Shown here: piece by piece, positions 36,046 to 50,842 of the stretch
Layout of the letters: every line of letters starts with the position of its first letter
Numbering within the stretch: position 1 is the first letter of the stretch
NCBI GenBank assembly: GCA_963802735.1
Contig: CAWDJY010000017.1
Coordinates: 94,521 to 158,520 of the forward strand
Length of the DNA: 64,000 nt
Reading direction: 5' to 3'
From: an uncultured Acidimicrobiaceae bacterium
GTDB lineage: Bacteria; Actinomycetota; Acidimicrobiia; Acidimicrobiales; RAAP-2
Translations under genes and position numbers: made by a program
Notes under the pieces: model-generated
What the model was told of the DNA's origin: nothing
Database searches by the model: none
Seen by the model: the letters and a program-made list of their open reading frames with translations, nothing else

Positions 36046-36435
36046 TCACGTGTGCTTCTTCGGAGTACGTCCGACTTTGACCTGCGCTTCGACCCAGTAC
36101 GCCTTGGGGTCGATCGCGATGCCGGGCATCTGGTACACGTCCGGGTGTGAGCCGGTCATCTTGCGGAACCGGGCCACTTTGCGCCAGATCGTGGACTTGT
36201 GCATCCCAAACTCTTCGAGGCCCTCAAAGCCGCCGTAGAGATGCCACATGACCCAGAAGCCGATCATGTCCTCGACAATCTGCGTCCCTAGTGGGAGCGC
36301 AGCCGCCTCGATCTTCGCCTTGACGAAAGGAGGCACGCGTCGATCAACGGCCTTGACATAAGCGTTCCAGGCTTTTTTTGCGATGCCTTGACCTTCTGGC
36401 GTCTCCATCGGGTCGGAGCGGAAGTCTGAGTCCAT
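36046..36435 (-). CDS. HTH DNA-binding protein (excisionase/regulator-like)
   Basis: Start trimmed to ATG 36435. HKSTIWRKVARFRKMTG helix-turn-helix-like segment. Confidence 0.6.
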   Translation of the reverse strand: MDSDFRSDPMETPEGQGIAKKAWNAYVKAVDRRVPPFVKAKIEAAALPLGTQIVEDMIGFWVMWHLYGGFEGLEEFGMHKSTIWRKVARFRKMTGSHPDVYQMPGIAIDPKAYWVEAQVKVGRTPKKHT

Positions 36436-36483
36436 ACTCGCAGTATAGAGAGTATGTGTCACACTACATGCAATAGTTGATGT

Positions 36484-37440: not shown

Positions 37441-37576
37441 GCCATCGCGAAACTACGGCGGTCAATCCTTTGGAATTTTGCAATGCAGTTTGCGGGTGCT
37501 GTGATACAGGGATCGCACCCGACTATGCCTGGAGAGCCCTGACGCGCATCGCTGTTCTAATCTGCGTATCACTTCT

Positions 37577-38059
37577 CTAGTTACCGCTGTCTGAGACATC
37601 GCGAAAGTGCACGTTCGTGTGCGCTCTGAGGATTGCCCGGAGTTCGGCCTCTTGGCCAACAAAGAACCGCTTCAAAATAATTGTGGCGGGCCGATGAGAA
37701 GTCTTTTGCAATGCGTAGTGTTCACTTCTTTCTTTCGTTCCCTTGTAGTTCGCCCATTCCTCTTTACGAGTCATTGATTTGCTTACAACAGAGACTCCAA
37801 CGTCATTCAAAGTGATCGCCCGCTCTTCCGAGAAGTCGCGCCTTAACCTCCAGAGAGCAAAAGGACTAACGATCAGTACGAATATGGCGTACACAACAAT
37901 TCCCACGACCAGATCCCAAACTAAGTATCCAAAGATCCATCCGTAAACGAGCAGTCCCGCGATAAGTACCAATTCGTGCCAACCCACGCGATATTCGCGC
38001 CGCTGAACACGCCTGAATTCCCGTGGTGTCCACTTTCCGGATGCGCTCACGGATTCCAC
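37577..38059 (-). CDS. Membrane protein, YcxB-like
   Basis: Two adjacent TM helices followed by a soluble ~90-aa domain. Family assignment is tentative. Confidence 0.5.
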   Translation of the reverse strand: MESVSASGKWTPREFRRVQRREYRVGWHELVLIAGLLVYGWIFGYLVWDLVVGIVVYAIFVLIVSPFALWRLRRDFSEERAITLNDVGVSVVSKSMTRKEEWANYKGTKERSEHYALQKTSHRPATIILKRFFVGQEAELRAILRAHTNVHFRDVSDSGN

Positions 38060-38107
38060 TTTCTGACCTTAGAATCTATGAGGCGTCGAAGCCATTACTT
38101 CATCCCC

Positions 38108-38135
38108 AGAGTCGGAGAATCATTCAATTCTGACC
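38108..38135 (+). repeat. Array repeat R1' (degenerate)
   Basis: agagtcggagaatcattcaattctgacc. Good left arm, diverged right arm. Confidence 0.45.
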
Positions 38136-38145
38136 ACTTGGTACA

Positions 38146-38175
38146 CCGCCACTCGGAGAATGTGCGGGTCGGTCC
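38146..38175 (+). repeat. Array repeat R1
   Basis: ccgccactcggagaatgtgcgggtcggtcc. Confidence 0.85.
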
Positions 38176-38471
38176 TGGAAACCTTTCTGTTTTCGAGACA
38201 GATGAACGGCTAGTTATCGGGTATCAACGGCAGCAAAAGCGGATACGGCAAAGGCACACACTGGGAGCCGCAACTTCACGACGAACTCCTCGAACGGGCT
38301 GGTACACCATAGTGTCCGCTCGACGACACCATCTTCATTCGCTTGAGAGAAACGTCACACCTGAAAGGAGGGCCAATGAAGGCTTGCACACCTGTTGCGT
38401 CAAGTGGGTCAAATAAAGGCGTGAAGTGAAAATCCAATCCGGATGCGACAATATCTTTGTGAAGGAGTCTC

Positions 38472-39389
38472 ATGACAGAGAAAATTCGCAGCAAGACTCT
38501 TAGAAGCCTGGCAATTGTCTTCGCGTTGACGATCTCAATGTTCTCGGCGCCTCCCGTAGTGTCTGGCGCCGGGACCGTGGTGTCTCCGGGAACATCGGTT
38601 GCGCGAGAACTTCTGAATCTGGCCATACTTCCCCCGAATGCAACACTCGTGCATCCCGCCAGAGCCGTGGTCTGTCAGTGTGCTGGTACCTTCGACACGA
38701 AGTATCTCGTCACGATGCATCGTTTCTACCTGGTTCTGGGTTCGCCAGCTTCTGTTGAAGAATTCATTGCGACCCATGTTCCAATGGGTGGCGTTGATGG
38801 CGGAGAAGCCCAGGGCGGTTCTGTCCTTGAAAACACAACCGAGTTTCCCGCGAACGGGCCGCATATTTACCTGCGCCAACTTGCTTACTCAATTACAGCG
38901 AGGAACGCATCTTCGTCGTGGTTACGGATCGACGGTCAAGTGACTTGGGTTCCTAGTCGCGCGTCGTCCCAAGTCGTCGCCGGAGCCATCTCTGCAACGG
39001 TCACCGGCTACAAGAGCGTGGGCCTCAGTGGCTCGACCGGAGCAACGAAGGTTCACGTTTCAGGAGGCAATCTCACCCATCTGATTCGATCTCTCAATTC
39101 ACTGCCTCTCGGTCCGCAATTCGGGTGCGTGGAAGAACTAACCGGCTTCGTTCTCCAAATAACTTTGAGAAACGGGGTCACGGTTGAGGTCTACAACAAT
39201 TTCTGTGGAGGGCCGTCCGACTTGGTGTCCTATCAAAAGGGCAGGATCCAAGGGACTCGCTACTTCCTATCGGACACCTCATGCGCACTGCTCAAAGATG
39301 TTGTGTCTCTCTTCGGCGGTGCAACGATAAAGGGAACAAGAGAGGCGCTGCGCAGTTGTCAGGCATGGATAAAGCATCCTGTCGCATAG
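38472..39389 (+). CDS. Secreted hypothetical protein (cassette A)
   Basis: SD GAAGGAG, signal peptide ...FALTISMFSAPPVVSGAG. Confidence 0.7.
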   Translation: MTEKIRSKTLRSLAIVFALTISMFSAPPVVSGAGTVVSPGTSVARELLNLAILPPNATLVHPARAVVCQCAGTFDTKYLVTMHRFYLVLGSPASVEEFIATHVPMGGVDGGEAQGGSVLENTTEFPANGPHIYLRQLAYSITARNASSSWLRIDGQVTWVPSRASSQVVAGAISATVTGYKSVGLSGSTGATKVHVSGGNLTHLIRSLNSLPLGPQFGCVEELTGFVLQITLRNGVTVEVYNNFCGGPSDLVSYQKGRIQGTRYFLSDTSCALLKDVVSLFGGATIKGTREALRSCQAWIKHPVA

Positions 39390-39439
39390 CCTTCGGCACC
39401 CCGTCTTGACCGGTGACTAATTACGCCGCCAGGCTCTGA

Positions 39440-39470
39440 GACGCCAGTCGGAGAATGTGTAAGTCGGCCC
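39440..39470 (+). repeat. Array repeat R2
   Basis: gacgccagtcggagaatgtgtaagtcggccc. It abuts the stop codon (39471-39473) of the minus-strand ORF. Confidence 0.85.
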
Positions 39471-40145
39471 TCAGAAGATGTTTGTCAATACGCTCATTGT
39501 CCGTCGAATTTTGTCCGCCTGAATTGCAGCCACCAATACGGCGTTCTCCCAGTTCCAAACATCAGATCGAGAACTGACTTGAATTGAAAAGTGAACTTGT
39601 CCGACATGGCTGAAAATCATGAGGACTTGGTACTTGACGTTCCCGGATTCGATCGATTCCTCATGAGCGAATACTGTCTCAAGACCTTCAATTCGGAGGT
39701 CTGTTAGATCTTGCGAGTGTGGTATCGCAACTCCCCTTGTCGGGTCATGAACGATGGAATCACTGGCTCGTTCAACGTTATGAATCGCGAGCCTTGCGGT
39801 GGAGAATGGGGTTACTCGTACAACCACGTCGCTCAAAGGATCTTGGCGCAGGAATTCGCGCTGGCCAGTTATTCCTCCTATCCCTTCGGCTCCCATTGGA
39901 GAGCGCACACGATTCACCGGACGAAATCCAACTTCTTTGACAAGTTTGAAGCCTTTGAAACCTTGAAGTTCCAAATCAATTTCGTCGATGAGCATCGCGA
40001 TCGAATACTTCTTCTTCCGCATTGGACCAAGCGACCTCAGCCAAAGTCGAACAAGCCGACCAAAGTCGCGCATACGCATACTCGGCGAAGCACTCACTGC
40101 CATAACTAAGGAACCTACTTCGGTATTCTCAACGGCATCGCTCAT
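39471..40145 (-). CDS. Hypothetical protein (cassette B)
   Basis: 224-aa ORF filling the R2-R3 interval. No family recognised. Confidence 0.55.
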   Translation of the reverse strand: MSDAVENTEVGSLVMAVSASPSMRMRDFGRLVRLWLRSLGPMRKKKYSIAMLIDEIDLELQGFKGFKLVKEVGFRPVNRVRSPMGAEGIGGITGQREFLRQDPLSDVVVRVTPFSTARLAIHNVERASDSIVHDPTRGVAIPHSQDLTDLRIEGLETVFAHEESIESGNVKYQVLMIFSHVGQVHFSIQVSSRSDVWNWENAVLVAAIQADKIRRTMSVLTNIF

Positions 40146-40206
40146 ATTGCCTCACGCAACCTTTCCGAGGACGTCTTGGGTAAGGATGTCACAATCCCCA
40201 GGGACT

Positions 40207-40239
40207 GATCCTCCACTCGGAGATTGTGTAGGTCGGCCC
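40207..40239 (+). repeat. Array repeat R3
   Basis: gatcctccactcggagattgtgtaggtcggccc. Confidence 0.85.
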
Positions 40240-40297
40240 AACGAACACCGAACATTCATTGATACTTCCTGCGTTCGCGGGCTGGAAGGATGAGCTT

Positions 40298-41311
40298 ATG
40301 ACGAGGCCACCGATTCCGCAATGGAGTGTCGATACTGGTCAGGCTGAATCGTTACTGGAACAGCTCGATGACCTCATGGCCGGGACCGTGTCTTCAATCG
40401 TGCCCGCAGGATTCGAGGCCTACGCTCGAATTTTGCATCCCGTTGAAACGCCGTTGTATGGCGACAGGTTGGTGCGCTGGAGGGACGTCGCCCACTGGGG
40501 TGGTCAAATACTGACGCCTCATTCCCAATGGCTCGAAGTGGCAATGCCCGAACGCTTGCCCGAACTACCACGACCTTGGAGAAGTCAAGGCCCTCAATCA
40601 GGCTCTCTCCACTCTGGCGACGCTCAGGCTCTCGTCAAGATCGCTCGCCGATTCACTGAGACGCCCGAAGAGTGCTGGTGCTGCGTCTGGGAGGGTTTCG
40701 GCTGGTGGTCGAGAGTGACTTACTCTCCTGGCCAATTGGGGACGCGATCGACGGGTCCGATCCCGATCGAAGCGAAGGATTGGCCAAAGGTTCACACTCG
40801 CTATCGCGACTACTTGCTCTATAAAGCGTCGCTCGGCCCCTCCTTCATGGAAGCGATCGAGATACTTGAGGGGCACTCACCAAACCTGTGGTGGCCGTCA
40901 GATCTTGCGTGGTGCGTAGGCACGGAGATCGATCTTGATTCGACCTATGTGGGAGGTTCGAAACCCTTCATTGAGGCGATTCTCCAGAATGAAGATCTTG
41001 AGGCATTCCAAATTGGTTCGACGGATTCGACGAGATTCGAATGGCCCGAGTGGATGATTCGTATTGTTGAAAGCAGTGTCGACGATCTGCTTTCATCGGG
41101 GCAGGCAGTAGTTGAGACCTCGATTGGAAGGATTCGCTTTGAATTGGCAAGTCCAAGACGATTGCGCCGCGGACTATTTCGATACGAGGTCGAGCGCGAC
41201 GGTCACGGAGGCGGCTCTGGACAGTCACCACTTAGCAACGATTCAGGTGAGAACCTGCGTCGGCAACTTCAGTTCCTCGTCCAAGGTGGCCTTCGAAGTC
41301 TCGCGACCTGA
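40298..41311 (+). CDS. Hypothetical protein (cassette C)
   Basis: ATG preceded by GGAAGGA. 337 aa, Trp-rich. No family recognised. Confidence 0.65.
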   Translation: MTRPPIPQWSVDTGQAESLLEQLDDLMAGTVSSIVPAGFEAYARILHPVETPLYGDRLVRWRDVAHWGGQILTPHSQWLEVAMPERLPELPRPWRSQGPQSGSLHSGDAQALVKIARRFTETPEECWCCVWEGFGWWSRVTYSPGQLGTRSTGPIPIEAKDWPKVHTRYRDYLLYKASLGPSFMEAIEILEGHSPNLWWPSDLAWCVGTEIDLDSTYVGGSKPFIEAILQNEDLEAFQIGSTDSTRFEWPEWMIRIVESSVDDLLSSGQAVVETSIGRIRFELASPRRLRRGLFRYEVERDGHGGGSGQSPLSNDSGENLRRQLQFLVQGGLRSLAT

Positions 41312-41398
41312 GGCAGAACTAGACGCCCGTCATTGCTGTGACGCATCGCGCGGACCTATCGGTCGACCGACTAGCGACCTCGCTGAATTCCACTTGCG

Positions 41399-41431
41399 GA
41401 TCCTCCACTCGGAGATTGTTGACGTCGGCCC
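41399..41431 (+). repeat. Array repeat R4
   Basis: gatcctccactcggagattgttgacgtcggccc. Confidence 0.85.
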
Positions 41432-41509
41432 GTCGACACATCACCCGGCTAAATGCGACGTCGCCTCGAGAGTTACCATGACCGCAATCGAGAAATCGAA
41501 AGGACCGCC

Positions 41510-42100
41510 ATGCTTGCATCCAAGAAAGATCAGCAAATCTTGCGTCGATTCCTTGTCGCAGCAGCGATGTTGTTGGGCGTCATTGGACTCAATTTCACTG
41601 CTAGTTCACCGATGGCCTCCGCCTTAAGCAACGTGCCGACGTGCGCCGATAGCCAGTTGGCCGTGGCTGTCGTGTCGTCGAGTGGAGCCTATTTCGCTGC
41701 AGGGAATGTCGGTATCCCTTTTGTCATCATCAACATCAGCAAGACAACTTGTTCGCTTAAGGGTTACCCAAGGCTCACCACGTATCCCGCTGCGTACAAG
41801 TTCAACAGGGTGCGGGTCACCGACGGTGGCGGCATGATCTTCGTTCAGGTGCGACCAAAAGTCGTGACCATCGGCGCCGGGGCTACCGCCTCGTTTGGAC
41901 TCAACTATGGAGATGCCTACGACCAGCAAGATCCGAATTCTGGACCGTGCATGACAAAGAAAATGCAGGTCTTCTTGCCAACCCGATCACATCCTTTCGC
42001 TCAGTCCTACTCAGCAACGGTAGATGTCAATTTTTGTTACGCGGGTTTCAAGTTCGAAATCACTTCAATCCAAAGCGGGCCTATCGCCAGACTGGGCTAG
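41510..42100 (+). CDS. Secreted DUF4232-like protein (cassette D)
   Basis: Signal peptide, then C..QL.V...G.AG......V.N.S...C.L.GYP pattern (TCADSQLAV...NISKTTCSLKGYPRL). Confidence 0.7.
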   Translation: MLASKKDQQILRRFLVAAAMLLGVIGLNFTASSPMASALSNVPTCADSQLAVAVVSSSGAYFAAGNVGIPFVIINISKTTCSLKGYPRLTTYPAAYKFNRVRVTDGGGMIFVQVRPKVVTIGAGATASFGLNYGDAYDQQDPNSGPCMTKKMQVFLPTRSHPFAQSYSATVDVNFCYAGFKFEITSIQSGPIARLG

Positions 42101-42115
42101 GTGATCGAGTCCGCA

Positions 42116-42147
42116 AGTCTCCAGTCAGAGATTGTTGACTTCGGTCC
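42116..42147 (+). repeat. Array repeat R5
   Basis: agtctccagtcagagattgttgacttcggtcc. Confidence 0.8.
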
Positions 42148-42174
42148 ACCAATGCGATCTCGAATTTCAGCCGG

Positions 42175-42855
42175 CTAACCGGATTGGATTAACTCTTCGA
42201 CGAAAGCTTCGAAAGTCCTTGCGTGGTCGTGACCTTTCGCGTTGCAAAAGTTCAGTGGATCGATGTGAATCGCTCGCATTCCCACGCCCATCGCGCCAAC
42301 CACATCGCTGTGCAATGAATCACCAACGTGAACGGCTCTTGCCGGACTCTCACCTAGCGCCTCAAGAGCCAAAAGGAATGGGCGAGGATCCGGCTTCTCA
42401 ATCCCAATGACCTGTGAGTCAATAATGGCCGCAACGCGTTGATGATTGCCGTCCACACTGCACAACTCGACTCTTTCCAGCAATGCGGACAACTCGCCGT
42501 GAACCGTATTGGAGACTACGGCCGCGCCAATTCCGGCAGCGATTAGTTGCGCTAATGCCGCAGTGGCTCCCGGCGCCGGAATCCATGAAGTTCCGAGGTA
42601 CACCTTTTCGGCAAGCTTTGCTCCAGCAGCATCCTGATCGGATGGAGCTACTCCAAGGGCATTTGCAAATCTCCGATTCATAGTGGGCCAGTCCGGTTGC
42701 ACTTGAAGATCGAGCAGTCGGACCATCTCATAATGGGCTCTCCAACAGGTCCCGTTGTCTGGTTCGCAAGAAAAGTCTTTAAGGATGCCTCTAATAACGC
42801 CTGGATCGGGGAGCAATAGAACTCCGTGAGCGTCAAGGGTTATTGCGCGGATCAT
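42175..42855 (-). CDS. HAD-superfamily hydrolase (cassette E)
   Basis: N-terminal ITLDAHGVLL, VSNT, and C-terminal HVGDSLHSDVVGA motifs. Confidence 0.8.
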   Translation of the reverse strand: MIRAITLDAHGVLLLPDPGVIRGILKDFSCEPDNGTCWRAHYEMVRLLDLQVQPDWPTMNRRFANALGVAPSDQDAAGAKLAEKVYLGTSWIPAPGATAALAQLIAAGIGAAVVSNTVHGELSALLERVELCSVDGNHQRVAAIIDSQVIGIEKPDPRPFLLALEALGESPARAVHVGDSLHSDVVGAMGVGMRAIHIDPLNFCNAKGHDHARTFEAFVEELIQSG

Positions 42856-42892
42856 GCCCTCATCATGTCACTGACTCAATCCTCCACTGACT

Positions 42893-42925
42893 GATCCGCC
42901 AGTCGGAGAAAGTGCAGGTCTGCCC
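42893..42925 (+). repeat. Array repeat R6
   Basis: gatccgccagtcggagaaagtgcaggtctgccc. Confidence 0.8.
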
Positions 42926-43085
42926 AGCATGACTTGCATACAACGACGCCTTTGCTACCATCGCAATTGAGCGATGAGGCCCGCCCCTAAAACCGCCGAT
43001 TGACTTCGGTTGATGGCTTCTACCAGCGCAACACGAGAGCTGGTAGGGCCGGTCCGCCGTACCCCTGCCGTGACAGGAGGAAACG

Positions 43086-44297
43086 GTGAACATTTACTAC
43101 GTAATGGCGATTTGGATCGGAATGGCGCTCGTAGCGTCATTCATCAGCATCCGCGTCGGCGTCTCGGTCGCCCTCGTTGAGATCCTGGTCGGCGCGATCT
43201 GCGGCAACATCCCAGGGATCAGGGAGCACGTCCAACAGACGGACTACACGACCTTGCTGGCCGGTATTGGTTCGGTTCTGCTCACGTTCCTCGCCGGAGC
43301 AGAGATCGACCCCGTATCGCTCAAGAAGCATTGGAAGGCCAGCCTCTCGCTAGGTTTTGTCGCTTTCATCCTGCCGCTCATCGGAGCATTCTGTTTTGCG
43401 CGGTTCGTCTTCGACTGGAACTTCCACGGCTCAGAGATTGCCGGCATCGCCCTCAGTACGACGTCAGTAGCGGTGGTCTACGCGGTGATGGTCGAGACCG
43501 GACTCAATCGACACGACATCGGCAAGCTCATACTGGCCGCTTGTTTCGTCTGCGACCTCGGCACAGTTTTGGCGCTCGGGGGACTGTTTGCCACATACGG
43601 CTGGCTCTTACTCGTCTTTGTTGCCGTCACCACGCTTGTCCTTTCATTCCTGCCGAGGACGCTCCGCTGGGTCGTGGCCAACGTCGGGCACAGGGTGAGC
43701 GAACCCGAAGTGAAAATCATCTTTGTCGTCCTGCTGGGCCTTGGCGGCCTCGCCACAGCGGCGGGTAGCGAAGCGGTCTTGCCCGCCTACGTGGCCGGAC
43801 TAGTGGTGGCTGGGGTCTTCATGAACGACCGGGTCATCCTCGATCGAATCCGCACCATCGCCTTCGCTTTGCTCACGCCGTTTTTCTTCCTACGCGCAGG
43901 CACGCTCATCTCAGACTCGGCTCTCATCAAGGGCGCCGGAATCATCGGGACGCTGTTCCTCGTCAAGATGGTGACGAAATTCATTGGGCTCTGGCCCACG
44001 GCCACGGCGTTCAAGTTACCCAAGCGAGAGAGGGCATACACGACGTTGCTCATGGCGACGGGCTTGACCTTCGGGTCAATATCAGCGCTCTTTGGGTTGA
44101 CCCACCATTTCATCAATGAGGCCCAGTACACCGAACTTGTGACCGTGGTGATTCTGTCGGCCTTCGTGCCAACGTTGATCGCTCAGCAGTTCTTCCAGCC
44201 ATCGGTGGGCATTCCGATTGATGAAGAGGAATCTCTCGGCGAAGAAGACATCTCCCTGCCTCACCGTCCTAGAAAACCTGACGCGCCATCCGACTAG
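43086..44297 (+). CDS. Cation:proton antiporter (Na+/H+ exchanger family) (cassette F)
   Basis: SD AGGAGGA followed by GTG. Polytopic, about 11-12 TM, typical CPA-family sequence. Confidence 0.85.
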   Translation: MNIYYVMAIWIGMALVASFISIRVGVSVALVEILVGAICGNIPGIREHVQQTDYTTLLAGIGSVLLTFLAGAEIDPVSLKKHWKASLSLGFVAFILPLIGAFCFARFVFDWNFHGSEIAGIALSTTSVAVVYAVMVETGLNRHDIGKLILAACFVCDLGTVLALGGLFATYGWLLLVFVAVTTLVLSFLPRTLRWVVANVGHRVSEPEVKIIFVVLLGLGGLATAAGSEAVLPAYVAGLVVAGVFMNDRVILDRIRTIAFALLTPFFFLRAGTLISDSALIKGAGIIGTLFLVKMVTKFIGLWPTATAFKLPKRERAYTTLLMATGLTFGSISALFGLTHHFINEAQYTELVTVVILSAFVPTLIAQQFFQPSVGIPIDEEESLGEEDISLPHRPRKPDAPSD

Positions 44298-44328
44298 CCG
44301 ACTCTGGCTCTCCGCCTGACAACCTTGA

Positions 44329-44361
44329 AATCCGCCAGTCGGAGAATGTGTAGGTTGGCCC
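44329..44361 (+). repeat. Array repeat R7
   Basis: aatccgccagtcggagaatgtgtaggttggccc. Confidence 0.85.
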
Positions 44362-44443
44362 ACTGAACACTTCGAGTGGCGTACGTTGAGAATCGAAACA
44401 AGTTTCATGTGTTCGTAATCACCCCCAGTGCGATACTCGAGTC

Positions 44444-45067
44444 GTGCCTCGCGGGTTCGCTTTCTTGTTAGTGCTGTTTCTAACTACAGTCGTCGGACCT
44501 ACTGCGGCAACAGAAACCGGAGCCACCACGCTGAGCGCTTGTACCACCACACAGCTCAACGTGATCTCATACGACGTCTCGGTCGCCACGGGTAGCGTCG
44601 GTGATCTCTTCTGGGTTGCCGACATCGGCGCGCGCGCCTGTACCTTGCGCGGCTACCCGCGAGCTTCCTACTGGGGCAACTACGGCTCAGTCCAGTCGAA
44701 GAAGCCCGCTCAACCCCTGGTGGTTGGCGAGTCGCACGGCAGACGTCGCTTCGACTTCGCAGGTGTTGCGAATGATCGCGCGCTCCCCACGGTCACACTT
44801 TCGCCGGACGGTGCGATCGCATCGTTCTGGATATTCGGCACCGACATGCCGGGACGGCTCGCCGACGGTCACCTGTCAAGATGCATTGTTTCCTATGAGA
44901 TGTGGGTGTCGATGTCGAAGGGACCGTCGGCGGTCATTGTCACTCCGAAAAGAGCCGGGAACTTCGACTGGTGCGGGTCAGTTACGGTCTACCCGGTCGT
45001 CGAGGGCGACACGGGCTCGGACCCCGCATTTCCTCTCGACCGCATGTTCGGCCCAACTCTTCCCTGA
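44444..45067 (+). CDS. Secreted DUF4232-like protein (cassette G)
   Basis: Signal peptide, then ACTTTQLNV...GARACTLRGYPRA. Paralog class of cassette D. Confidence 0.7.
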   Translation: MPRGFAFLLVLFLTTVVGPTAATETGATTLSACTTTQLNVISYDVSVATGSVGDLFWVADIGARACTLRGYPRASYWGNYGSVQSKKPAQPLVVGESHGRRRFDFAGVANDRALPTVTLSPDGAIASFWIFGTDMPGRLADGHLSRCIVSYEMWVSMSKGPSAVIVTPKRAGNFDWCGSVTVYPVVEGDTGSDPAFPLDRMFGPTLP

Positions 45068-45129
45068 CTTCAAAGGTTGCCAGATTCTCTCAACCAATTC
45101 TCGTCAAACACAGACTCACTCCAAGTCCG

Positions 45130-45162
45130 GATTCGCCCATCGGAGAATGTGTACGTCGGTCC
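45130..45162 (+). repeat. Array repeat R8
   Basis: gattcgcccatcggagaatgtgtacgtcggtcc. Confidence 0.85.
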
Positions 45163-45204
45163 AACGATGCCGTTGCAACCTTGGATCAAACCGACAAATG
45201 GAAA

Positions 45205-45669
45205 CTATTGGCAGACCGTGGCAATTGTGGCCTCAATGATGTCCTTCGAATTCCTGCGCACAACAATGTTGCCGCGCGGCGGCGGAGAAGTCGCCTCACT
45301 TGTAGTCAGGTAATAGGTCCCCAGCCCAACCGCAAAAGCGTAGTGACTCAGATGCATACTGGGCCTCAATATCGTGGTTGCAACGACGCGTCCGTTTGAA
45401 CGCACATGGAGTGTGACCGTGAAGGGACGGCGAAGACCGGGGGACGGACCGACACCGCACTCAGAGACGCTCCCGGTGATGATGCTGACTTTGCCCAATG
45501 GCGAACTGGACGCGGCACCGATGTCCAGCGGCAGTACGCAGAGAGTGGCCGACAAAGCAGCGGCGGCAACGCCCCAGCGTCCTAAGCGCCACTTCGAATT
45601 CTGAAAGCCGTATCGCCTTATCTCGCTGACCGGCTCGCCTGATCCTGAGTTGTCGCGTTCATTAGTCAT
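45205..45669 (-). CDS. Membrane-anchored/secreted hypothetical protein (cassette H)
   Basis: Start set at ATG 45669 (MTNERD...). Has a hydrophobic anchor WGVAAAALSATLCVLPL. Confidence 0.55.
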   Translation of the reverse strand: MTNERDNSGSGEPVSEIRRYGFQNSKWRLGRWGVAAAALSATLCVLPLDIGAASSSPLGKVSIITGSVSECGVGPSPGLRRPFTVTLHVRSNGRVVATTILRPSMHLSHYAFAVGLGTYYLTTSEATSPPPRGNIVVRRNSKDIIEATIATVCQ

Positions 45670-45863
45670 CAACACCCCTTCTCTTCGGCTATGTCCTACC
45701 ACCACGAGAACTTTCCCGACGAGAGGGATTTCACATGATCGTCAATGATCCGCAGCCATCTTCGACCAGGCAGACAGGAGAGTGTCAACAGGGCGGCAAT
45801 TCGCGTGAAACGGCACCGTCACAATCATCGACCCTTTCAAGCGCAGCCTCATCTCCACTCTTT

Positions 45864-45896
45864 GAGTCGCAACTCGGAGATTGTGGACGTCGGCCC
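45864..45896 (+). repeat. Array repeat R9
   Basis: gagtcgcaactcggagattgtggacgtcggccc. Confidence 0.85.
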
Positions 45897-45974
45897 TTCG
45901 GTTAATTCAAATCGCCCTTTGGGTAACGGTTGCGAAATGCGCTACGAATACACCGAGGTATAAACTCCAGTCGG

Positions 45975-46012
45975 CAACAAGGGCTGGCGGGAATTGGGCT
46001 CCGCCCTTGTTG
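45975..46012. other. Perfect 10-bp inverted repeat (hairpin) in the ORF-less 291-bp unit
   Basis: CAACAAGGGC-n18-GCCCTTGTTG. A left-arm half-site actccagtcgg lies at 45964-45974 and overlaps its start. Confidence 0.6.
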
Positions 46013-46154
46013 ACCTACCCGCGGCGGGTTGGGAACTCATCATGGCAGTTCCCATCATCGGGCCGACCGCGATTATCCCGGGCACTTCCGGAAGCAGAAC
46101 AGAAGCCATCGTTCACTACTTTCGCCGACCATTAGATTGAGTCTCCCACGAACA

Positions 46155-46187
46155 GATTCGCCAGTCGGAGAATGTGTAGGTCGGCCC
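46155..46187 (+). repeat. Array repeat R10
   Basis: gattcgccagtcggagaatgtgtaggtcggccc (closest to the consensus). Confidence 0.88.
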
Positions 46188-46217
46188 TCTGATACGACCA
46201 AGTCCGATGCACCGTTG

Positions 46218-46997
46218 CTAATGCCGAGCGGCCGTCACCCACCCGAACTCCGATGAGACTCGAAGTCCGCCCCGTTGGTCAAACCGTGGGGTCAAGGTTT
46301 CGTTGAGTTCCTCACAAAACTGATCGTATCCAATCGTCTCAATCGCCGGAACTGAGGGGCCTGCGGCGGCCAGCGCTCGGACCGCGGTCGCTACGTCGGG
46401 CCACTCGTTGGTCACGGTGACTTCGCCACGTTCAAGAAGATGAAACCCTGTCGCTTCCAGCATCCCCTCAATGACTCCCGGCCTACCGGTGTCGCCCTGT
46501 TCCACGCTCGCCGAACCGTGGCTCTGAGGAGAGTGTTCGATTATCTTGAGGAAGTAGGGCAAGAGTCCCAGGTTCGCGTATCGACCCCAAAACGTCATTC
46601 CGAATACTCCACCGTCGATCAAAACTCGGCGCACCTCGGTAAGTGCTGCTTCGCATCCTTTCCAAATGCCATTGAATGAAACGCCGCGATCGAAGGATCC
46701 GTCGTTGAAGGGAAGAGCGAACATGTCCCCCACACGAAAATCGCTCTCCGGTGATCTCAGTCGAGCAATCTCGATCAATGGTGCGGCGGCATCTATGCCC
46801 GCGACCTCGGCGCCTTTCAGGGCGGCGAGGCGTGCGGCGTATCCTGAACCGCACGCAACGTCGAGCAGGCGCGTTCCGGGACCGACTTCCAATTTGCGAA
46901 GTATGAGCTCATTCGCTGGGAGTGAATACGGCTCGAATAGATAGGCCCACTCACGAGCTCGCTCACCCCAGCCCCGGCCGGCCTCTTCCCAGTCCAT
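46218..46997 (-). CDS. Class I SAM-dependent methyltransferase (cassette J)
   Basis: LLDVACGSGYAA motif I, then DMFALPFNDGSFD. Confidence 0.85.
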   Translation of the reverse strand: MDWEEAGRGWGERAREWAYLFEPYSLPANELILRKLEVGPGTRLLDVACGSGYAARLAALKGAEVAGIDAAAPLIEIARLRSPESDFRVGDMFALPFNDGSFDRGVSFNGIWKGCEAALTEVRRVLIDGGVFGMTFWGRYANLGLLPYFLKIIEHSPQSHGSASVEQGDTGRPGVIEGMLEATGFHLLERGEVTVTNEWPDVATAVRALAAAGPSVPAIETIGYDQFCEELNETLTPRFDQRGGLRVSSEFGWVTAARH

Positions 46998-47108
46998 TGC
47001 ACCTCCTGCACATCGTCAAATCATCGGTTCTGTGAAATTCATGGTCAGATTATCCAAATAACCTTCACCCGATGACGGATTCTTCAAATTGGAGTGCCTC
47101 CGCTTCTG

Positions 47109-47141
47109 CAGTCGCCACTCGGAGATCGTTGATGACGGCCC
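47109..47141 (+). repeat. Array repeat R11
   Basis: cagtcgccactcggagatcgttgatgacggccc. Confidence 0.8.
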
Positions 47142-47182
47142 GGGGACCTCTTCGCCTTCGTCTTCGTCGTTATGGTGGTGAG

Positions 47183-48319
47183 GTGAAGGCGAGATTTGCC
47201 CTTAGAGCGTGTTCGCTGATCGCTGCGGCTCTGATTTTCCTCACTTCCATCGTCGTTTCCCCGGGCGCGCTCGCATCAACAGGGTCGATACAGACGCCGG
47301 TTCTTCTGATTCGAGCGGGATCGTCGAAGGTCTTCTATGTGGTGACGACAAGTGGCTGCCACTCGCCGGCGTGCTTACGAATGTACCGAACCGACAGTCA
47401 CGCGACGACATTTACGCGCGTATCGCCACCGCCGGTAGCTCGTGAGCAAGGAGGGACGGCGGGCACGACGTTGGACGACGTCGTTTTCGCCAACGCCAAC
47501 GATGGCTACGCCACCGTAGGGAATTACTCGCCGTCGGCTCTCTACGTGACGGTGAACGGCGCGCGGACGTGGCGACGAGTCATGGGCGCGAAGGATCTCA
47601 CGATCTCGGTGGCGATGACGAGGAATGAGATCTTCGTAACTTCGGTCACGTGTCGGCCCCGAAGCATCGTTTGTGGCCAGTTCACGACGCGACGCGCGTC
47701 GCTCACAGCGAAGGACTGGGTGACCCTGCCGAGGTTGTGGAAGACCGGGACGGGTCGGAAGGAAACGTACTACGGACCATCGCTGGCTGCCTTCGGCAAC
47801 ACGGTCTGGGAGCTCCAGACGGGGTCCGAGACGTACTTGTGGACCTCGCACGACAACGGGCGCACGTTTGCGCGGATAGAAGAGAGGTTTCCTGCACTCG
47901 CGAGCGTGAGCGGCTGCACGATCACGCCGAAGAGCTCCGTCTCGCTTTGGGCGGAGTGCCCAACGGGCATGCAGGAGTCCTTTTGGCACTCTGAGAACGG
48001 TGGTGCCACGTGGTCGCCGGCGAGCCCCAACGATCTCCAGTTCATGGGCACCGGCGGCGGTTCATTCGATCCGATTACGTCGAACGTGGCCGTGCTGGAC
48101 TACGGGGCCGTAGCGACTCCGCCCGACCTTTATCGAATCAGCGACGGAGGCGCACTCTTCACGCCTATCGGCGAAGTGCGCTGCACCAACGTTTCCCCAA
48201 TGATCTTCACGAACATATCTGACGGCCTGATGGTATGCGGCCTCAACTCCACGACGGTTGTACGTCGTACGAGCAACGGAGGAGCGACCTGGGAGAACGT
48301 TGCGCTGCCGCGATGGTGA
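47183..48319 (+). CDS. Secreted BNR/Asp-box repeat protein (cassette K)
   Basis: Signal peptide plus repeated SxDxGxTW-like boxes (TVNGARTW, SHDNGRTF, SENGGATW, TSNGGATW). GTG 47183 chosen. An alternative ATG at 47132 lies inside R11. Confidence 0.7.
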   Translation: MKARFALRACSLIAAALIFLTSIVVSPGALASTGSIQTPVLLIRAGSSKVFYVVTTSGCHSPACLRMYRTDSHATTFTRVSPPPVAREQGGTAGTTLDDVVFANANDGYATVGNYSPSALYVTVNGARTWRRVMGAKDLTISVAMTRNEIFVTSVTCRPRSIVCGQFTTRRASLTAKDWVTLPRLWKTGTGRKETYYGPSLAAFGNTVWELQTGSETYLWTSHDNGRTFARIEERFPALASVSGCTITPKSSVSLWAECPTGMQESFWHSENGGATWSPASPNDLQFMGTGGGSFDPITSNVAVLDYGAVATPPDLYRISDGGALFTPIGEVRCTNVSPMIFTNISDGLMVCGLNSTTVVRRTSNGGATWENVALPRW

Positions 48320-48340
48320 TCGTCAGGATTCGGTCGCTCC

Positions 48341-48371
48341 GGATCAGTCGGAGCGGTGTAGAAAGTGCCCC
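48341..48371 (+). repeat. Array repeat R12 (degenerate, terminal)
   Basis: ggatcagtcggagcggtgtagaaagtgcccc. Left arm is kept, right arm diverged. Confidence 0.55.
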
Positions 48372-48560
48372 TCTCGGTTCGAGTGACGCTGCAAGAGCCA
48401 CGTCGAAGATCGTCGGGCAATCTTGTACGCCAAGTCCGTTCGAGGTGATACCTCTCGACGCACTCCGCGAGCAGCTGGCTGCCGTCTCGTTCATGTTTCA
48501 TTGCTAGAACGGTTCTATGCGTTGTCGACCAACACGTCACGAGCCAGGGACGCTCACGGG

Positions 48561-48833
48561 ATGATCCGTTTCGCCGTAAAGGTTCATCCCGGGTCGACCA
48601 CGATCAGCGTCGGCGGCAGCTACGACGGCGCTCTCCAGGTTCGTGTACGCGCCCGGGCGATCGACAACGCAGCGACGAATGAGGTGTGCGCCGTTCTCGC
48701 CGACGCCTTTGGCGTTCGCCCTGGTGCGGTGCGGTGCGTGCGAGGTGCACGTTCTCGAATCAAACTCATCGCTATTACGGGCAACGACGACGTCCTCGCG
48801 GCTCGGCTCGACACCCTGCTGTCGTCAAGCTAG
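48561..48833 (+). CDS. DUF167 (YggU-like) protein
   Basis: MIRFAVKVHPGS...IDNAATNEV...GARSRIKLI pattern. Confidence 0.75.
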   Translation: MIRFAVKVHPGSTTISVGGSYDGALQVRVRARAIDNAATNEVCAVLADAFGVRPGAVRCVRGARSRIKLIAITGNDDVLAARLDTLLSSS

Positions 48834-48994
48834 GGCGCCGTTGGCTCGACGTCGCAACGGTGCGGAGAAATGCCGTCGACTCTCTACTCCAAACCACGGG
48901 CCCTTACTGATGGGCTGCGAAGGTCGCCGTTTCTCATCAAACTGTAAGTCGATTCTTCCGAGAAACGGTTTCGAGACTCCTAGGCTTAAGTCAC

Positions 48995-50842
48995 GTGCAC
49001 TCTCTACTGACGAAGTCCTCGTTCGCGGTCGTTATGACCGCGGTCATACTTTCGGCCTCTGTGGTTGTCGCCGCAGCCGGCACTCCCCTCGCACCCACGG
49101 CGACCGGCTTCGACATCAGCTTTCCGCAGTGCACCGAGTCCTTGCCACCTTCACCGGGCTTTGGCATCGTGGGCGTCAACGCGGGTACGACCTTTAGCGC
49201 TAACACATGTCTCTCGCGAGAACTGGCCTGGGCCGAGGGCGCCGCGAACGCAACGCCCGCCTTCTACGCCAACACCGAGGATCCCGGTCCCGCGAACGCT
49301 TCGAACTGGCCAACGAGCCAGCAGTCCCCGCGCGTGTGCAGCGGCGCGAACTCGGTGGCCTGCTCGTACGACTACGGCTGGAACGCGGCGCGACTCGCCT
49401 TCGCCAACGCCGTCAACGCGGAGAAGGAGGACGGCAGGTCGTCACCAACGGCCTCGGCCGTTGCGGCGAAGTGGTGGCTCGACGTGGAAACAGGGAACAA
49501 GTGGGAGACCCTCGAATACGGACGACGTTCCGCGACGGGCTCGTACGACGAGGCGTCCATAGAAGGCATGATCGCCTCCTTCGAGAACATCGGCGTCGCG
49601 TCGGTCGGCATCTACTCAACTTCGCAACAATGGAAGGTCATCGCCGTTCGCACTGACGCGTCGTTTCCCTCGGTGCCGGTATGGCTCGCGGGTTTCGGCT
49701 CGCTGACGACAGCCGAGGTGGGCTGTGGCACGACGTCGTTCACCGGCGGACGCGTGGCCCTGATCCAGTACGGATCACTCGGGTACGACGGTGACTACGC
49801 CTGCGGACTCTTGAGCACGCCGGTGACGACGTCGGTCTCCGCGGTCGGATCGCCAGCGTTCACGGATCAGATCGTCTCCACGAACAGCGACGGAACGGTC
49901 ACGTACGTTCAGACCACTGGCAGCCCCGCGTTGCTGGTCAGCGGCAGTGGGCTCGTCACCACCAGTGGCGCGTTGGCCCCCGGTGCCTACGTCGCCACGG
50001 GCACGACCAGTGATCCGAACGGCGACACCGGTTCGTTCTCGCTAACGCTCGAAGTCGGCGAATTAATCCAGAGTCTGCCCACGACCGCCTCGGTCAAGGT
50101 GAGCGGATCACCGACCTTTCACGACCAGCTGGAGGTCACGGGCAGCGATGGCGCCGTCACGTACGTCCAGACGAGCGGCACGCCCGCCTTGATCGTGAGC
50201 ACGAGTGGACTCGTCACGACCGCGGGACCGCTAACGGTCGGCACGTACGTCGCGACGGGCACCACGATCGACGCGGCTGGCGACGCGGGGAGCTTCACGC
50301 TCACCCTAAAGGTCGGAGCGCTCGTTCAACGTCAGCCCACGTCGGCGACCGTACTCACCACGAGCTCATCGTCGTTCCGCACTCAACTCGCCATCGGCGC
50401 CAACCTGGGGGTGGTCACCTTCGTCCAAGAGCGTGGGGCACCCGCATTGACCGTGAGCACGAGTGGACTCGTCACGACCAGCGGATCATTGGCCGACGGC
50501 ACCTACCGCGCCACCGGCACGGTGAGCGACGCGACCGGCGACGTCGGAACGTTCACCTTCACGCTGAGCGTCAAGACCCCACTGGTGGTGCCAACGGCGA
50601 GGTCCGTGGTCGGGTACGCCGTCGCCGGCAAGACCAGGATTCTGACGGTCCACGGCACGGGCTTCTACGGCGATCCCCGCATTACGAGCCATTCGGGAAC
50701 GACCGCGCTCGTTACGCGGGACACGGGCCAAGTACTGGTCGTGCGCGTCGCCGTGCGCGCCGGCTCTCGGAACGGCGTGTTCACCTTCACCATCGTCCTG
50801 GCCGACGGTGAATCATGCCAGGTCCGCTACAACCAGCGTTAG
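48995..50842 (+). CDS. Secreted protein: glycoside-hydrolase-like N-domain (GH25/DUF1906-like, tentative) plus 3 Ig-like repeats
   Basis: Signal peptide, GFDISFPQC motif, then three ~86-aa repeats. Confidence 0.7.
   Translation: MHSLLTKSSFAVVMTAVILSASVVVAAAGTPLAPTATGFDISFPQCTESLPPSPGFGIVGVNAGTTFSANTCLSRELAWAEGAANATPAFYANTEDPGPANASNWPTSQQSPRVCSGANSVACSYDYGWNAARLAFANAVNAEKEDGRSSPTASAVAAKWWLDVETGNKWETLEYGRRSATGSYDEASIEGMIASFENIGVASVGIYSTSQQWKVIAVRTDASFPSVPVWLAGFGSLTTAEVGCGTTSFTGGRVALIQYGSLGYDGDYACGLLSTPVTTSVSAVGSPAFTDQIVSTNSDGTVTYVQTTGSPALLVSGSGLVTTSGALAPGAYVATGTTSDPNGDTGSFSLTLEVGELIQSLPTTASVKVSGSPTFHDQLEVTGSDGAVTYVQTSGTPALIVSTSGLVTTAGPLTVGTYVATGTTIDAAGDAGSFTLTLKVGALVQRQPTSATVLTTSSSSFRTQLAIGANLGVVTFVQERGAPALTVSTSGLVTTSGSLADGTYRATGTVSDATGDVGTFTFTLSVKTPLVVPTARSVVGYAVAGKTRILTVHGTGFYGDPRITSHSGTTALVTRDTGQVLVVRVAVRAGSRNGVFTFTIVLADGESCQVRYNQR
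49829..50584 (+). repeat. Three tandem ~258-nt coding repeats
   Basis: Repeat units contain ...DG.VTYVQT.G.PAL.VS.SGLVTT.G.L..G.Y.ATGT..D..GD.GSF.LTL.VG, three times. Confidence 0.8.

Follow-up and report, generated by a model that had tools for sequence, protein, structure and literature searches.

Genes and repeats of the variable block

The window, the whole 64-kb stretch of DNA analysed here, holds a variable block that runs from 33446 to ~48900. The first-pass annotation had set the extent of the block at 38108–48371; it is larger and includes a recombinase module, which is its first cassette. The features are as follows.

33426–33445, +: B half-site, GTGCGGGTTCACGTCGGACC, after crcB; left half of an attL-like junction
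33434–34867, − (opposite to the repeats): large serine recombinase (LSR), 477 aa (Pfam)
33446–33470, +: P′ half-site, TCCGACACCAACATTCTCCGGTACC, overlapping the 3′ end of the LSR gene (its last codons and stop)
34961–35860, −: Rep_trans-like protein (weak Rep_trans match, 0.0012, via a longer homologue of u299)
36046–36669, −: small ORF, first cassette
36484–37440, +: DUF2971 protein (Pfam, 6.9e-7)
37577–38059, −: 160-aa ORF, first cassette
38134–38175, +: P repeat R1 (pattern, nhmmer and consensus), closing the recombinase cassette
39429–39470, +: P repeat R2, closing cassette c1 (305-aa ORF, 38472–39389, +)
40198–40239, +: P repeat R3, closing c2 (ORF, 39471–40145, −)
41390–41431, +: P repeat R4, closing c3 (ORF, 40259–41311, +)
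42106–42147, +: P repeat R5, closing c4 (DUF4232, 41453–42100, +)
42884–42925, +: P repeat R6, closing c5 (HAD hydrolase, 42175–42855, −)
44320–44361, +: P repeat R7, closing c6 (Na+/H+ exchanger family, 43086–44297, +)
45121–45162, +: P repeat R8, closing c7 (DUF4232-like, 44444–45067, +)
45855–45896, +: P repeat R9, closing c8 (ORF, 45205–45705, −)
46146–46187, +: P repeat R10, closing the 291-bp c9
47100–47141, +: P repeat R11, closing c10 (SAM methyltransferase, 46218–46997, −)
47142–48882, +: last two cassettes (gene calls and Pfam)
~47132–48319, +: BNR/Asp-box protein, then a decayed P-like copy (48341–48371)
48561–48833, +: PF02594 protein of 90 aa, then a decayed P-like copy (48862–48882)
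48920–50842, +: start of the conserved right flank, with a 615-aa repeat protein (48995–50842)

The repeats are real and co-oriented, as first claimed. A pattern search allowing up to three mismatches found 10 copies in the window, all on the plus strand, with none expected by chance (100 dinucleotide-preserving shuffles), and an nhmmer profile found 11 co-oriented copies between 38129 and 47141 (E values of 2e-12 to 1.6e-8) and no match in the window outside that span. Start-to-start distances (1295, 769, 1192, 716, 778, 1436, 801, 734, 291 and 954 bp) reproduce the earlier spacings. The conserved unit, previously put at ~33 nt, covers ~47 nt among 186 unique copies: CCA-N7-A-NN-CGCCAGTCGGAGAWTGTKNANGTCGGCCC, followed by a weaker tcCGAcacca. 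Besides the 11 copies, the degenerate P-like stretches at 38106–38134, 48341–48371 and 48862–48882, the last of them an addition to the earlier list, score no higher than background (ungapped scoring), and it is their position at cassette ends that makes them plausible P sites. Neither Rfam families nor tRNAs were matched within the window.

Genes lie on both strands between repeats of fixed polarity, for example the HAD hydrolase on the minus strand and DUF4232 on the plus strand, and independent gene calls concur. The ORFs are packed against the repeats, the stop codon of the c2 ORF lying at +23 to +25, directly 3′ of the crossover at the R2 end (39470), on the R3 side; c9 has no confident ORF. 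GC content is 0.51–0.60 across 36–49 kb versus ~0.65 in the flanks. In these respects the first reading holds.

The recombinase gene forms part of an attachment site

The LSR has Resolvase (2.4e-39), Zn_ribbon_recom and Recombinase domains in Pfam, matches the TP901-1 integrase catalytic domain (4.6e-19) and is partially similar to XisF, CcrB and CcrC, under the family cut-offs. Its homologues at E ≤ 1e-30 number more than 500; the 120 top-ranking ones listed are 59–100% identical, mostly of equal length, and come from environmental assemblies.

A link between the array and this nearby enzyme had been proposed; the LSR gene is in fact a physical component of the site. Read on the opposite strand, P′ gives CGGAGAATGT-N4-GTCGG and matches the P repeat (CGGAGAWTGT-N4-GTCGG), so that P′ is the mirror image of P, with the dyad centre at the CC of P positions +21/+22 (C in 175 and 176 of the 186 copies, respectively). 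The earlier statement that there is no attC-type palindrome is correct for the repeat itself, but P and P′ form a dyad across the cassette junction. The geometry of LSR and repeat is identical in seven loci and in L132, whose LSR is 64% identical and has the same dyad layout. Intact LSR genes occur in seven loci, all retrieved by the repeat alone, and the 34961–38059 module accompanies the recombinase in five (L037, L001, L021, L042 and L059). In L048 just ~420 nt separate the start of the LSR from the following P, and this gap holds no accessory genes within the extent of the available locus.

The crossover was mapped in two independent ways. B and its crcB-side flank are kept in six loci (L039, L094, L051, L054, L091 and L066), and homology ends right after B, whose last two bases (CC, 33444–33445) probably form the crossover dinucleotide; cassettes shared between arrays lose homology at +22/+23, the same point. 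P′ is also found after six distinct left contexts at other loci. B is identical to the 3′ part of tRNA-Leu(GAG) at 16 of 20 positions, resembling the T-arm, and in five loci P′ remnants or arrays come after true tRNA-Leu(GAG) genes.

On this site anatomy, the repeats are probably the P arms of LSR attachment sites and not attC sites. Counting against this reading, many arrays have no LSR in the available sequence (for example, the crcB locus of OY970319.1), and conservation of P extends 40 nt from the crossover, past the mirrored part.

Empty sites and cassette turnover in related genomes

The P pattern occurs at 107 genome loci, nearly all in Acidimicrobiaceae metagenome-assembled genomes (MAGs) and none viral; since contigs of MAGs or metagenomes supply most of the sequences, individual loci may be mis-binned. 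Copies are co-oriented within almost every locus, and genome-wide scatter, which the first-pass annotation had named as a refutation, was not found: P is confined to co-oriented arrays lying between a B and a B′ half-site, B′ being B in reverse complement. attL-, attR- and attB-type junctions are all present. Arrays open with B|x′, in the crcB context and at least eight other genomic contexts, and close with P|B′ in more than 12 loci; a metagenome scan gave 14 B|B′ palindromes, of which seven contigs (five distinct loci) are truly unoccupied. One empty locus (L117) has a counterpart (L015) whose right flank is 97.2% identical and which carries P|B′ at that point. The right flank of the window is ~80% identical to those of L105 and L003, where it also lies 3′ of an array, with homology starting at 48920–48971.

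Nor is the array identical in all relatives, the other refuting scenario open to sequence analysis, since content differs at the same chromosomal site: L114 and L051 have 97.8% identical flanks and different first cassettes. Cassettes and blocks are also found again in other arrays, the breaks falling precisely where the repeat ends, as expected of the cassette array first claimed. Positions 41138–41432 are 97.6% identical to L070:2–296, the homology ending with R4 and the next cassettes differing; 44357–45170 match one L036 cassette (88.6%) with different neighbours; 45895–46174 are found again in L049 (85.7%) and L103 (81.5%); and 48496–48846 match an L084 cassette closed by a P|B′ junction (83%). 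A two-cassette block without an LSR (97.9% identity over 1,236 nt) stands behind B at two separate places in the chromosome (L054 and L085); the homology of the block starts at B and stops exactly at the second P. Further whole cassettes are common to different arrays. Across 134 intervals the median cassette is 840 bp, and the longest ORF runs with the repeats in 87 and against them in 43, while 4 have no ORF.

Two further features accompany some arrays. Other arrays contain an interleaved second class of site, P2, a point against the LSR reading. IS110-family transposases recur in six array loci, and no IS110 ends were found abutting P or B sites.

Proposed mechanism, alternatives and known systems

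We propose that an LSR probably built the array by inserting, accreting and exchanging cassettes that mostly hold a single gene (median ~840 bp). The target would be the attB-type chromosomal site downstream of crcB, whose left half (GTGCGGGTTCACGTCGGNCC) resembles the tRNA-Leu(GAG) T-arm and which, when unoccupied elsewhere, is a B-CC-B′ palindrome. DNA circles bearing a P|x′ site would insert at the central CC, so that a resident cassette spans x′ (tcCGAcacca) to the P arm ending GTCGGCCC, usually with one gene in either orientation inside. The first cassette (33446–38175) encodes the LSR, whose last codons form P′; P and P′ make a quasi-palindrome of ~2 × 22 bp around a non-palindromic CC. 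Repeated insertion at the array and excision between junctions would stack and reshuffle cassettes into a hypervariable store of genes, richer in AT, whose place in the chromosome stays fixed.

Canonical serine integrases recombine attP with attB only. As the internal junctions are P|x′, building or using the array would require non-canonical pairing (attP × attL) or Ccr-like promiscuity. We infer that this LSR would act on all P sites, would tolerate such non-canonical pairs and would move recombinase-less cassettes in trans.

It is also possible, if unlikely, that the units are remnants of complete LSR elements that integrated in tandem and then lost their recombinase modules, leaving P arms as fossils and cassettes that are not independently mobile. 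LSR fragments lie directly 3′ of P in six further loci (L006, L038, L061, L019, L022 and L047), compatible with passive accretion of whole elements followed by decay; a few junctions retain a full P′, x′ resembles an eroded P′ or a tRNA 3′ end, two LSR elements stand in tandem at tRNA-Leu in L001, and the array is unchanged within one species (99.98% identity). However, P is highly conserved across 47 nt in 186 copies, whereas in the x′ halves next to it conservation is limited to the inner ~10 nt; remnants of the same age would be expected to have decayed to the same degree. The cassettes are short and their genes abut the crossover, as in c2, so this scenario needs repeated deletions ending a few bases from the site. 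Nor does it sit well with single cassettes recurring beside different neighbours, or with the LSR-free block that is 98% identical at two attB loci and cut exactly at the sites.

A motif unrelated to recombination (a REP/MITE-like element, a regulator-binding site, a promoter or terminator, or an IS110-family target) is very improbable: P is short, conserved, intergenic and lineage-specific, with an additional conserved 5′ part and with IS110 transposases near six arrays, but its orientation is constant in arrays regardless of gene direction, it is never scattered (none elsewhere in the window), inter-genome homology breaks exactly at its end, IS110 ends do not abut it, and the window has no match to Rfam families or tRNAs.

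Integrase-less site clusters are common among integrons, and the one-site-per-gene organization, the cassette sizes and a first site that, like attI, has just its crossover-adjacent part in common with the repeats would suit unusual attC sites served by a tyrosine integrase encoded elsewhere in the genome, yet we regard this as the least credible explanation, because the repeat lacks the internal R″/L″-L′/R′ palindrome, its sequence and not its pairing is conserved, single-strand folds differ between copies, the crossover-side box is GTCGGCC rather than GTTRRRY, the other half of the dyad is found beyond the junction, within a gene for a serine recombinase, and empty targets are double-strand palindromes. 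The first-pass annotation had recorded integron logic without IntI or attC, and we agree: there is no tyrosine recombinase in the window and none recurrent near arrays, where a box-II-like motif was found in 1 of 1,941 ORFs, from a non-Acidimicrobiaceae MAG.

With about a dozen cassettes stacked in one chromosomal LSR attachment site, this peat-soil actinobacterium appears to carry an integron-like gene-collecting platform built on a different enzyme family. The likeness to integrons is functional and extends to single-gene cassettes of integron size, but the symmetry that attC holds within the repeat lies here across the junction, between P and P′, as in the classic serine-integrase layout of a quasi-palindrome around a non-palindromic centre. 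Tandem accretion at one att site, first taken to be new, has precedents in the closest known systems: in SCCmec/Ccr and in the Dehalococcoides ssrA islands (PMC3146451), serine-recombinase elements have likewise accumulated in tandem. The present arrays are unusual in their number and in being miniaturized to cassettes with a single gene and no recombinase.

The repeat and the variable block it occupies

A degenerate pattern allowing up to three mismatches found ten copies of the array repeat (P, which forms the cassette end), all on the plus strand, where 100 dinucleotide-preserving shuffles gave an expectation of none. A profile built from the copies recovered 11 (38129–47141) and no copy elsewhere in the 64 kb window. 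Start-to-start spacings, when remeasured, agree with those of the first-pass annotation, which had listed 12 co-oriented copies and an extra one at 38108. Eleven copies stand; the degenerate copies at 38106 and 48341 have no significance in ungapped scoring, and the same is true of a further degenerate copy at 48862. The main features are as follows.

33426–33445 (+): B, the left target half-site, after crcB
33434–34867 (−): large serine recombinase (LSR) gene, part of the first cassette
33446–33470: P', the mirror half-site of P
34961–35860 (−): gene adjoining the LSR gene
38129–47141 (+): 11 copies of P, separating the cassettes that follow (c1–c10)
45897–46187: 291-bp cassette
48995–50842: open reading frame (ORF) for a 615-aa protein of the right flank

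With position 0 set at the T of TCGGAG, the consensus of 186 unique copies of P reads CCA (−19 to −17), N7, A (−9), NN and CGCCAGTCGGAGAWTGTKNANGTCGGCCC (ending at +22), followed at +23 to +32 by a weaker tcCGAcacca. C is present at +21 in 175 and at +22 in 176 of these copies. The 186-copy logo reflects conservation of sequence in a fixed register and not of pairing, as the variable stretch pairs with nothing, and the single-strand DNA folds of the 11 window copies are mutually inconsistent. The repeat is therefore not attC-like, in keeping with the initial impression that no attC-type palindrome is present: attC sites are 57–141 nt long, have an R''-L''...L'-R' organization and conserve structure over sequence. 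A hairpin between an AATCYCCAC left arm and GTCGGAGAWT, seen in a few copies only, was dropped because the logo has no conserved partner.

One exact-pattern scan of a species-representative genome collection yielded 107 loci, nearly all of them in Acidimicrobiaceae metagenome-assembled genomes from peat, palsa, bog and Danish soils, and profile searches found co-oriented arrays in most of them. The corresponding scan of a viral collection returned no match to the motif, and a phage origin of the array was dropped. A dispersed REP- or MITE-like repeat, the generic scattered element against which the first-pass annotation had cautioned, does not fit with the absence of copies outside the array in the window and with the clustered, co-oriented copies at other loci. 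The repeat is also not a promoter, terminator or ribosome-binding site, because its polarity is independent of gene direction, as that annotation had reasoned. Pfam-annotated genes, together with source-contig gene calls that agree with the genes assigned between repeats, confirm genes on both strands against a fixed repeat polarity: a HAD hydrolase and a SAM methyltransferase on the minus strand, and a Na+/H+ exchanger and two DUF4232 proteins on the plus strand.

The GC content is 0.51–0.60 at 36–49 kb, compared with about 0.65 outside, matching the AT-richer region noticed by eye. Elsewhere the window has the genes of an ordinary actinobacterial chromosome (glutamate synthase, transketolase, Pup-proteasome genes and Tat). 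The left flank (HtrA, SDR and two crcB genes) and the right flank (the 615-aa protein) are 77–90% conserved in several genomes, in which the DNA between them is unrelated. Left-flank homology ends at 33445–33451 in six genomes, directly after the conserved GTGCGGGTTCACGTCGGNCC (B), and right-flank homology begins at 48920–48971; the variable block, of which the recombinase module is a part, therefore extends from 33446 to about 48900. At the right boundary, the half-site B' (the reverse complement of B) is too decayed for a call. No known RNA, tRNA or tmRNA was found within the window. The 615-aa protein has no Pfam or NCBIfam match, and its ORF contains three tandem 258-bp units (49898–50572) that are 68–72% identical over 159 nt.

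The recombinase and its probable target sites

The 477-aa product of 33434–34867 is a large serine recombinase with the domains expected of a serine integrase: Resolvase (PF00239, 2.4e-39), Recombinase (PF07508, 1.3e-4) and zinc ribbon (PF13408, 3.6e-7). Its catalytic domain matches that of the TP901-1 integrase, including the RVST serine motif, and its similarity to XisF and Ccr is only sub-threshold. The last codons of the gene read TCCGACACCAACATTCTCCGG on the plus strand, directly after the junction, and this sequence follows six different left contexts at other loci, among them a canonical repeat (L006) and a tRNA-like T-arm (L037). The reverse complement of P', CCGGAGAATGTTGGTGTCGGA, mirrors the repeat as CGGAGAWTGT-N4-GTCGG around the central CC at +21/+22. 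Judged by their sequences, P and P' together have the layout of a serine-integrase att site, with two half-sites of ~22 bp around a non-palindromic central dinucleotide. This fits an attP-type site, an imperfect inverted repeat of ~40–50 bp next to the recombinase gene, and P' overlaps the 3' end of the LSR gene. The dyad centre CC coincides with the crossover mapped independently from homology breaks in shared cassettes. On the 5' side of P, the conserved CCA-N7-A-NN-CGCCAG has no mirrored partner.

A 64% identical LSR homologue (L132) has the same arrangement, and in the seven loci with an intact LSR gene the gene is always upstream of the repeats and on the opposite strand. In one of the loci compared (L048), only ~420 nt separate the LSR start from the next P, and this stretch has no accessory genes, as far as the locus extends. 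The gene adjoining the LSR gene (34961–35860) travels with it in six other loci. A longer homologue of this gene (L042:3714–4811) has a weak match to Rep_trans, a rolling-circle replication initiator (E 0.0012, below the Pfam cut-off), which hints that the excised module might replicate.

In agreement with the first-pass annotation, no IntI-type tyrosine recombinase turned up when nearly all large ORFs in the window were annotated with Pfam; a rough scan for a box-II motif matched 1 of 1,941 ORFs near arrays. In a census of recurrent proteins around the 107 arrays, an LSR and an IS110 transposase were the only recombinase-type candidates. IS110-family (DEDD) transposase genes lie within a few kb of arrays in six loci (L024:601–1878, L104:3024–4190, L045, L050, L026 and L100), but the ends of three comparable copies are in unrelated sequence and not at P or B sites, and these transposases were rejected as the agent.

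Real tRNA-Leu(GAG) genes end in GTGCGGGTTCAAGTCCCGCC|TCCGACACCA, and recombinase genes, P' remnants or arrays come after them in five loci. B is alike to the 3' part of tRNA-Leu(GAG) at 16 of 20 positions; arrays begin with it both at the crcB locus and in eight or more unrelated contexts, always in repeat orientation. At the far end, P and then TCCGAnnnGAACCCGCAC (B') close the array in more than a dozen loci. Hybrid junctions are thus present at both ends, B|x' at array starts (x' being the start of the cassette after P) and P|B' at array ends, as expected for attL and attR. An empty B|B' site was predicted first and then sought in a metagenome collection, in which 14 were found, 7 contigs (5 distinct loci) being truly empty. 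One empty site (L117) and a locus with P|B' at the same nucleotide (L015) share right flanks that are 97.2% identical over 2.8 kb, and the left flank of the former matches that of the L085 array. Set beside the tRNA-Leu genes of L017, L020 and L099, P (all window copies, 38134–47141) together with the next cassette start resembles a tRNA-Leu(GAG) minihelix, with an acceptor 5' strand GTCGGAG, a T-loop-like TKNANGT, an acceptor 3' strand CTCCGAC and ACCA. A second LSR, 44% identical to that of the window (L001:6389–7819), lies directly against a real tRNA-Leu(GAG) gene (L001:7787–7871) and forms a tandem with an element like that of the window, so that two LSR lineages share one target.

A second class of cassette-end site (P2), nCGCCAGTGCAAGGTKGCA-NNNCTGTNNCGTCGGGCC|TCCGACACCA, occurs 63 times in L017, L084, L056, L005, L116 and other loci, and has no instance in the window. 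P2 sites are interleaved and co-oriented with the P repeats of the same arrays, and what they have in common with P is limited to the initial CGCCAGT and the GTCGGSCC at the crossover; their first part resembles the tRNA-Leu(GAG) anticodon arm. A pairing of P2 with the second LSR type was considered, but that type has a single full-length example (L001), and a fragment (L047) contradicts a clean pairing. Half of the B|B' palindromes (L112, L114, L116, L120, L123, L124 and L125) are followed by P2 within about 10 nt, so that B' plus P2 makes up a recurring unit of ~70 nt that amounts to a nearly empty cassette.

Cassette exchange and a model for movement

The 3' end of c3 (41138–41432) is 97.6% identical to L070:2–296, with similarity ending at the last base of the repeat and a different cassette following, and c7 (44357–45170) is 88.6% identical to one L036 cassette that has other neighbours. 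These breaks place the start of a cassette immediately behind GTCGGCCC of a repeat and its end at GTCGGCCC of the following one. The 134 intervals between adjacent P copies have a median of 840 bp (10th–90th percentile, 444–2,225 bp); their longest ORF points the same way as P in 87 and the opposite way in 43, and 4 intervals have none. Among the recurrent cargo are RibD_C, glyoxalase, chloramphenicol-phosphotransferase-like, AHSA1, BNR and DUF4232 proteins. The 291-bp cassette of the window has no confident ORF and is 82–86% conserved in the L049 and L103 arrays; one gene caller places a 55-aa minus-strand ORF within it (about 45942–46109), and the product of the cassette may be a small protein or an RNA.

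Content turns over at the sites. In two relatives (L114 and L051), the crcB-side flanks are 97.8% identical over 6.9 kb and diverge from the first base after CC. A two-cassette block common to the crcB locus of L054 and to another locus (L085) is 97.9% identical over 1,236 nt, with homology running from B to exactly the second P and different flanks on both sides, and further whole cassettes are common to several arrays. The array is identical in one long same-species contig from another sample, and an identical-protein look-up found P0059 on many contigs but in a single context. The search of related genomes that had been proposed from the first reading returned co-oriented arrays of variable content, and not the identical arrays in all relatives that it had named as the adverse outcome. 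Short same-species contigs from other samples (L110, L136, L111, L134 and L135) stop at or just past the crossover (33444–33450); L136 ends exactly at ...GTCGGACC, and L110 has ACCA in place of the window's TCCG after the junction. These breaks and the 4-nt variant are suggestive, at most, of population variants, and the breaks may reflect assembly-graph branching from alternative first cassettes or repeated P' copies.

Reading from sequence the site anatomy, the attB, attL and attR types, the crossover position, the linkage of LSR and site and the exchange of cassettes at sites, we propose that the LSR would insert P|x'-bearing circles into B-type sites, at their CC, and would also recombine junctions, such that cassettes and blocks are excised or moved. 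The recombinase itself would ride on one cassette. Internal junctions are P|x', and within x' only the inner tcCGAcacca is conserved. Canonical serine integrases pair only attP with attB, a strict rule that involves a directionality factor; Ccr enzymes are reported to be promiscuous, accepting several site pairings. The internal junctions suggest a departure from strict attP × attB directionality, for which there are two options: either the LSR is promiscuous like Ccr, or whole elements accreted and then lost their recombinases. We favour activity of the LSR in trans on cassettes, because the P arms are strongly conserved while the adjoining x' halves have decayed, because genes abut the crossover within a few bases, and because LSR-free blocks at different attB loci break exactly at sites.

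Taken to its full extent, LSR activity in trans would make the system a true serine-recombinase counterpart of integrons, in which recombinase-less, gene-sized cassettes (one conserved P arm and a minimal x') leave the array as circles and are put back in trans by an LSR that itself lies on a cassette, at B-headed arrays on many tRNA-Leu-like palindromic sites per genome. We advance this tentatively, as a serious possibility that falls a little short of probable. If true, a platform for gene capture would have evolved independently in Actinomycetota, and its LSR would by nature accept site pairs other than attP × attB. An enzyme acting in trans on minimal sites would represent a second, independent route to gene-cassette capture, would explain hypervariable islands of uncultured actinobacteria, and would offer genome engineering a family of serine integrases whose natural landing pads are defined and whose site-pair rules are possibly relaxed. 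If instead the array only documents elements that accreted and decayed again and again, it remains a clean example, resolved to the site, of genomic-island building. An abundant soil and peat lineage, the Acidimicrobiaceae, appears to keep one-gene-one-site bookkeeping on a large serine recombinase; the attB/attL/attR anatomy is clear, arrays are numerous per genome, and sites exchange cassettes with one another.

Comparison with known systems

A Xer/dif-like identity is rejected, as the repeat has no Xer-type dyad and GANAATGT resembles dif sequences only at chance level in a comparison by eye.

Integrons and CALINs, the latter of which may lack IntI, are the closest in logic. The 'one gene, one site' reasoning of the first-pass annotation holds, with one recombination site of constant polarity per mostly single-ORF cassette and content that varies among relatives. 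Further likenesses are a distinct first site that shares only the crossover-adjacent part with cassette sites, a crossover at the 3' edge of the conserved cassette site, the cassette size range, the diverse accessory cargo and the fast turnover at a fixed locus. However, IntI, attC structure and the R' box were all looked for and are not found; integrons have GTTRRRY with crossover between G and TT, and the box here is GTCGGCC|C with crossover at the CC of +21/+22. Unlike IntI, the recombinase is a serine and not a tyrosine enzyme, is not divergently placed beside the first site, and is itself encoded on a cassette. The sites are double-strand quasi-palindromes in place of folded single-strand attC, and one-third of the cassette genes point against the array. 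To our knowledge, integrons are essentially absent from Actinomycetota, and cassette platforms are known almost only with tyrosine recombinases on folded attC sites.

In CIMEs (cis-mobilizable elements), which accrete with integrative elements, and in tycheposon-type tRNA-linked islands, recombinase-less elements keep their att sites and pile up by a tRNA-type target, yielding arrays of partial tRNA-like repeats. Such systems mostly use tyrosine recombinases and have units of kb to tens of kb, few per site, in contrast to the serine-integrase-type sites and single-gene-sized units here.

In mechanism, the closest systems are SCC/Ccr elements and the Dehalococcoides ssrA islands. SCC and SCCmec elements share LSR-driven insertion at one fixed chromosomal site, tandem stacks with direct repeats of the site between elements, and stack members without recombinase genes that are thought to be moved in trans; PMC11470126 describes tandem SCC arrangements. 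Membership of the SCC/Ccr family is nonetheless rejected on orthology, unit size and target. The LSR scores 111 bits against the NCBIfam CcrB model and 100 against CcrC (cut-offs 900 for both), the catalytic domain alone aligning. SCC elements span tens of kb with many genes, compared with a median unit of 840 bp and one gene here; they target the 3' end of rlmH and not tRNA-Leu(GAG) with its look-alike palindromes; and they reside in Bacillota. The window's genome family, unlike SCC hosts, has many attB sites.

In Dehalococcoides, multiple tandem islands (DsiB serine recombinase; McMurdie et al. 2011, PMC3146451) lie downstream of a small-RNA gene, each flanked by a direct repeat of its 3' end that is preceded by further conserved bases. 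Their integration module adjoins attL and is encoded on the reverse strand, with the LSR gene overlapping the repeat; insertion is in the T-loop region, and islands lacking the module are proposed to be cis-mobilizable (PMC3146451, in which CIMEs are also discussed). Tandem units, a reverse-strand LSR overlapping the repeat, T-loop insertion and units that may be cis-mobilizable are common to both systems. By contrast, the Dehalococcoides target is tmRNA, with a 20-bp repeat in place of a 47-nt P arm with mirrored P'; the islands are large and multi-gene, and their integration module has six genes, one of them for a second, small serine recombinase; and there is one site per genome, whereas here empty palindromic attB sites occur at many loci.

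The first-pass annotation had held that either cassette capture or tandem accretion would be new. Accretion by serine recombinases is known, from SCC and from Dehalococcoides (PMC3146451), and what stands of that claim is the gene-sized cassettes at many tRNA-like sites; a literature search found no prior description of this system. We rate it as serine-recombinase accretion miniaturized to gene-sized cassettes, spread over many tRNA-like landing sites and belonging to a phylum in which integrons are not a known feature.
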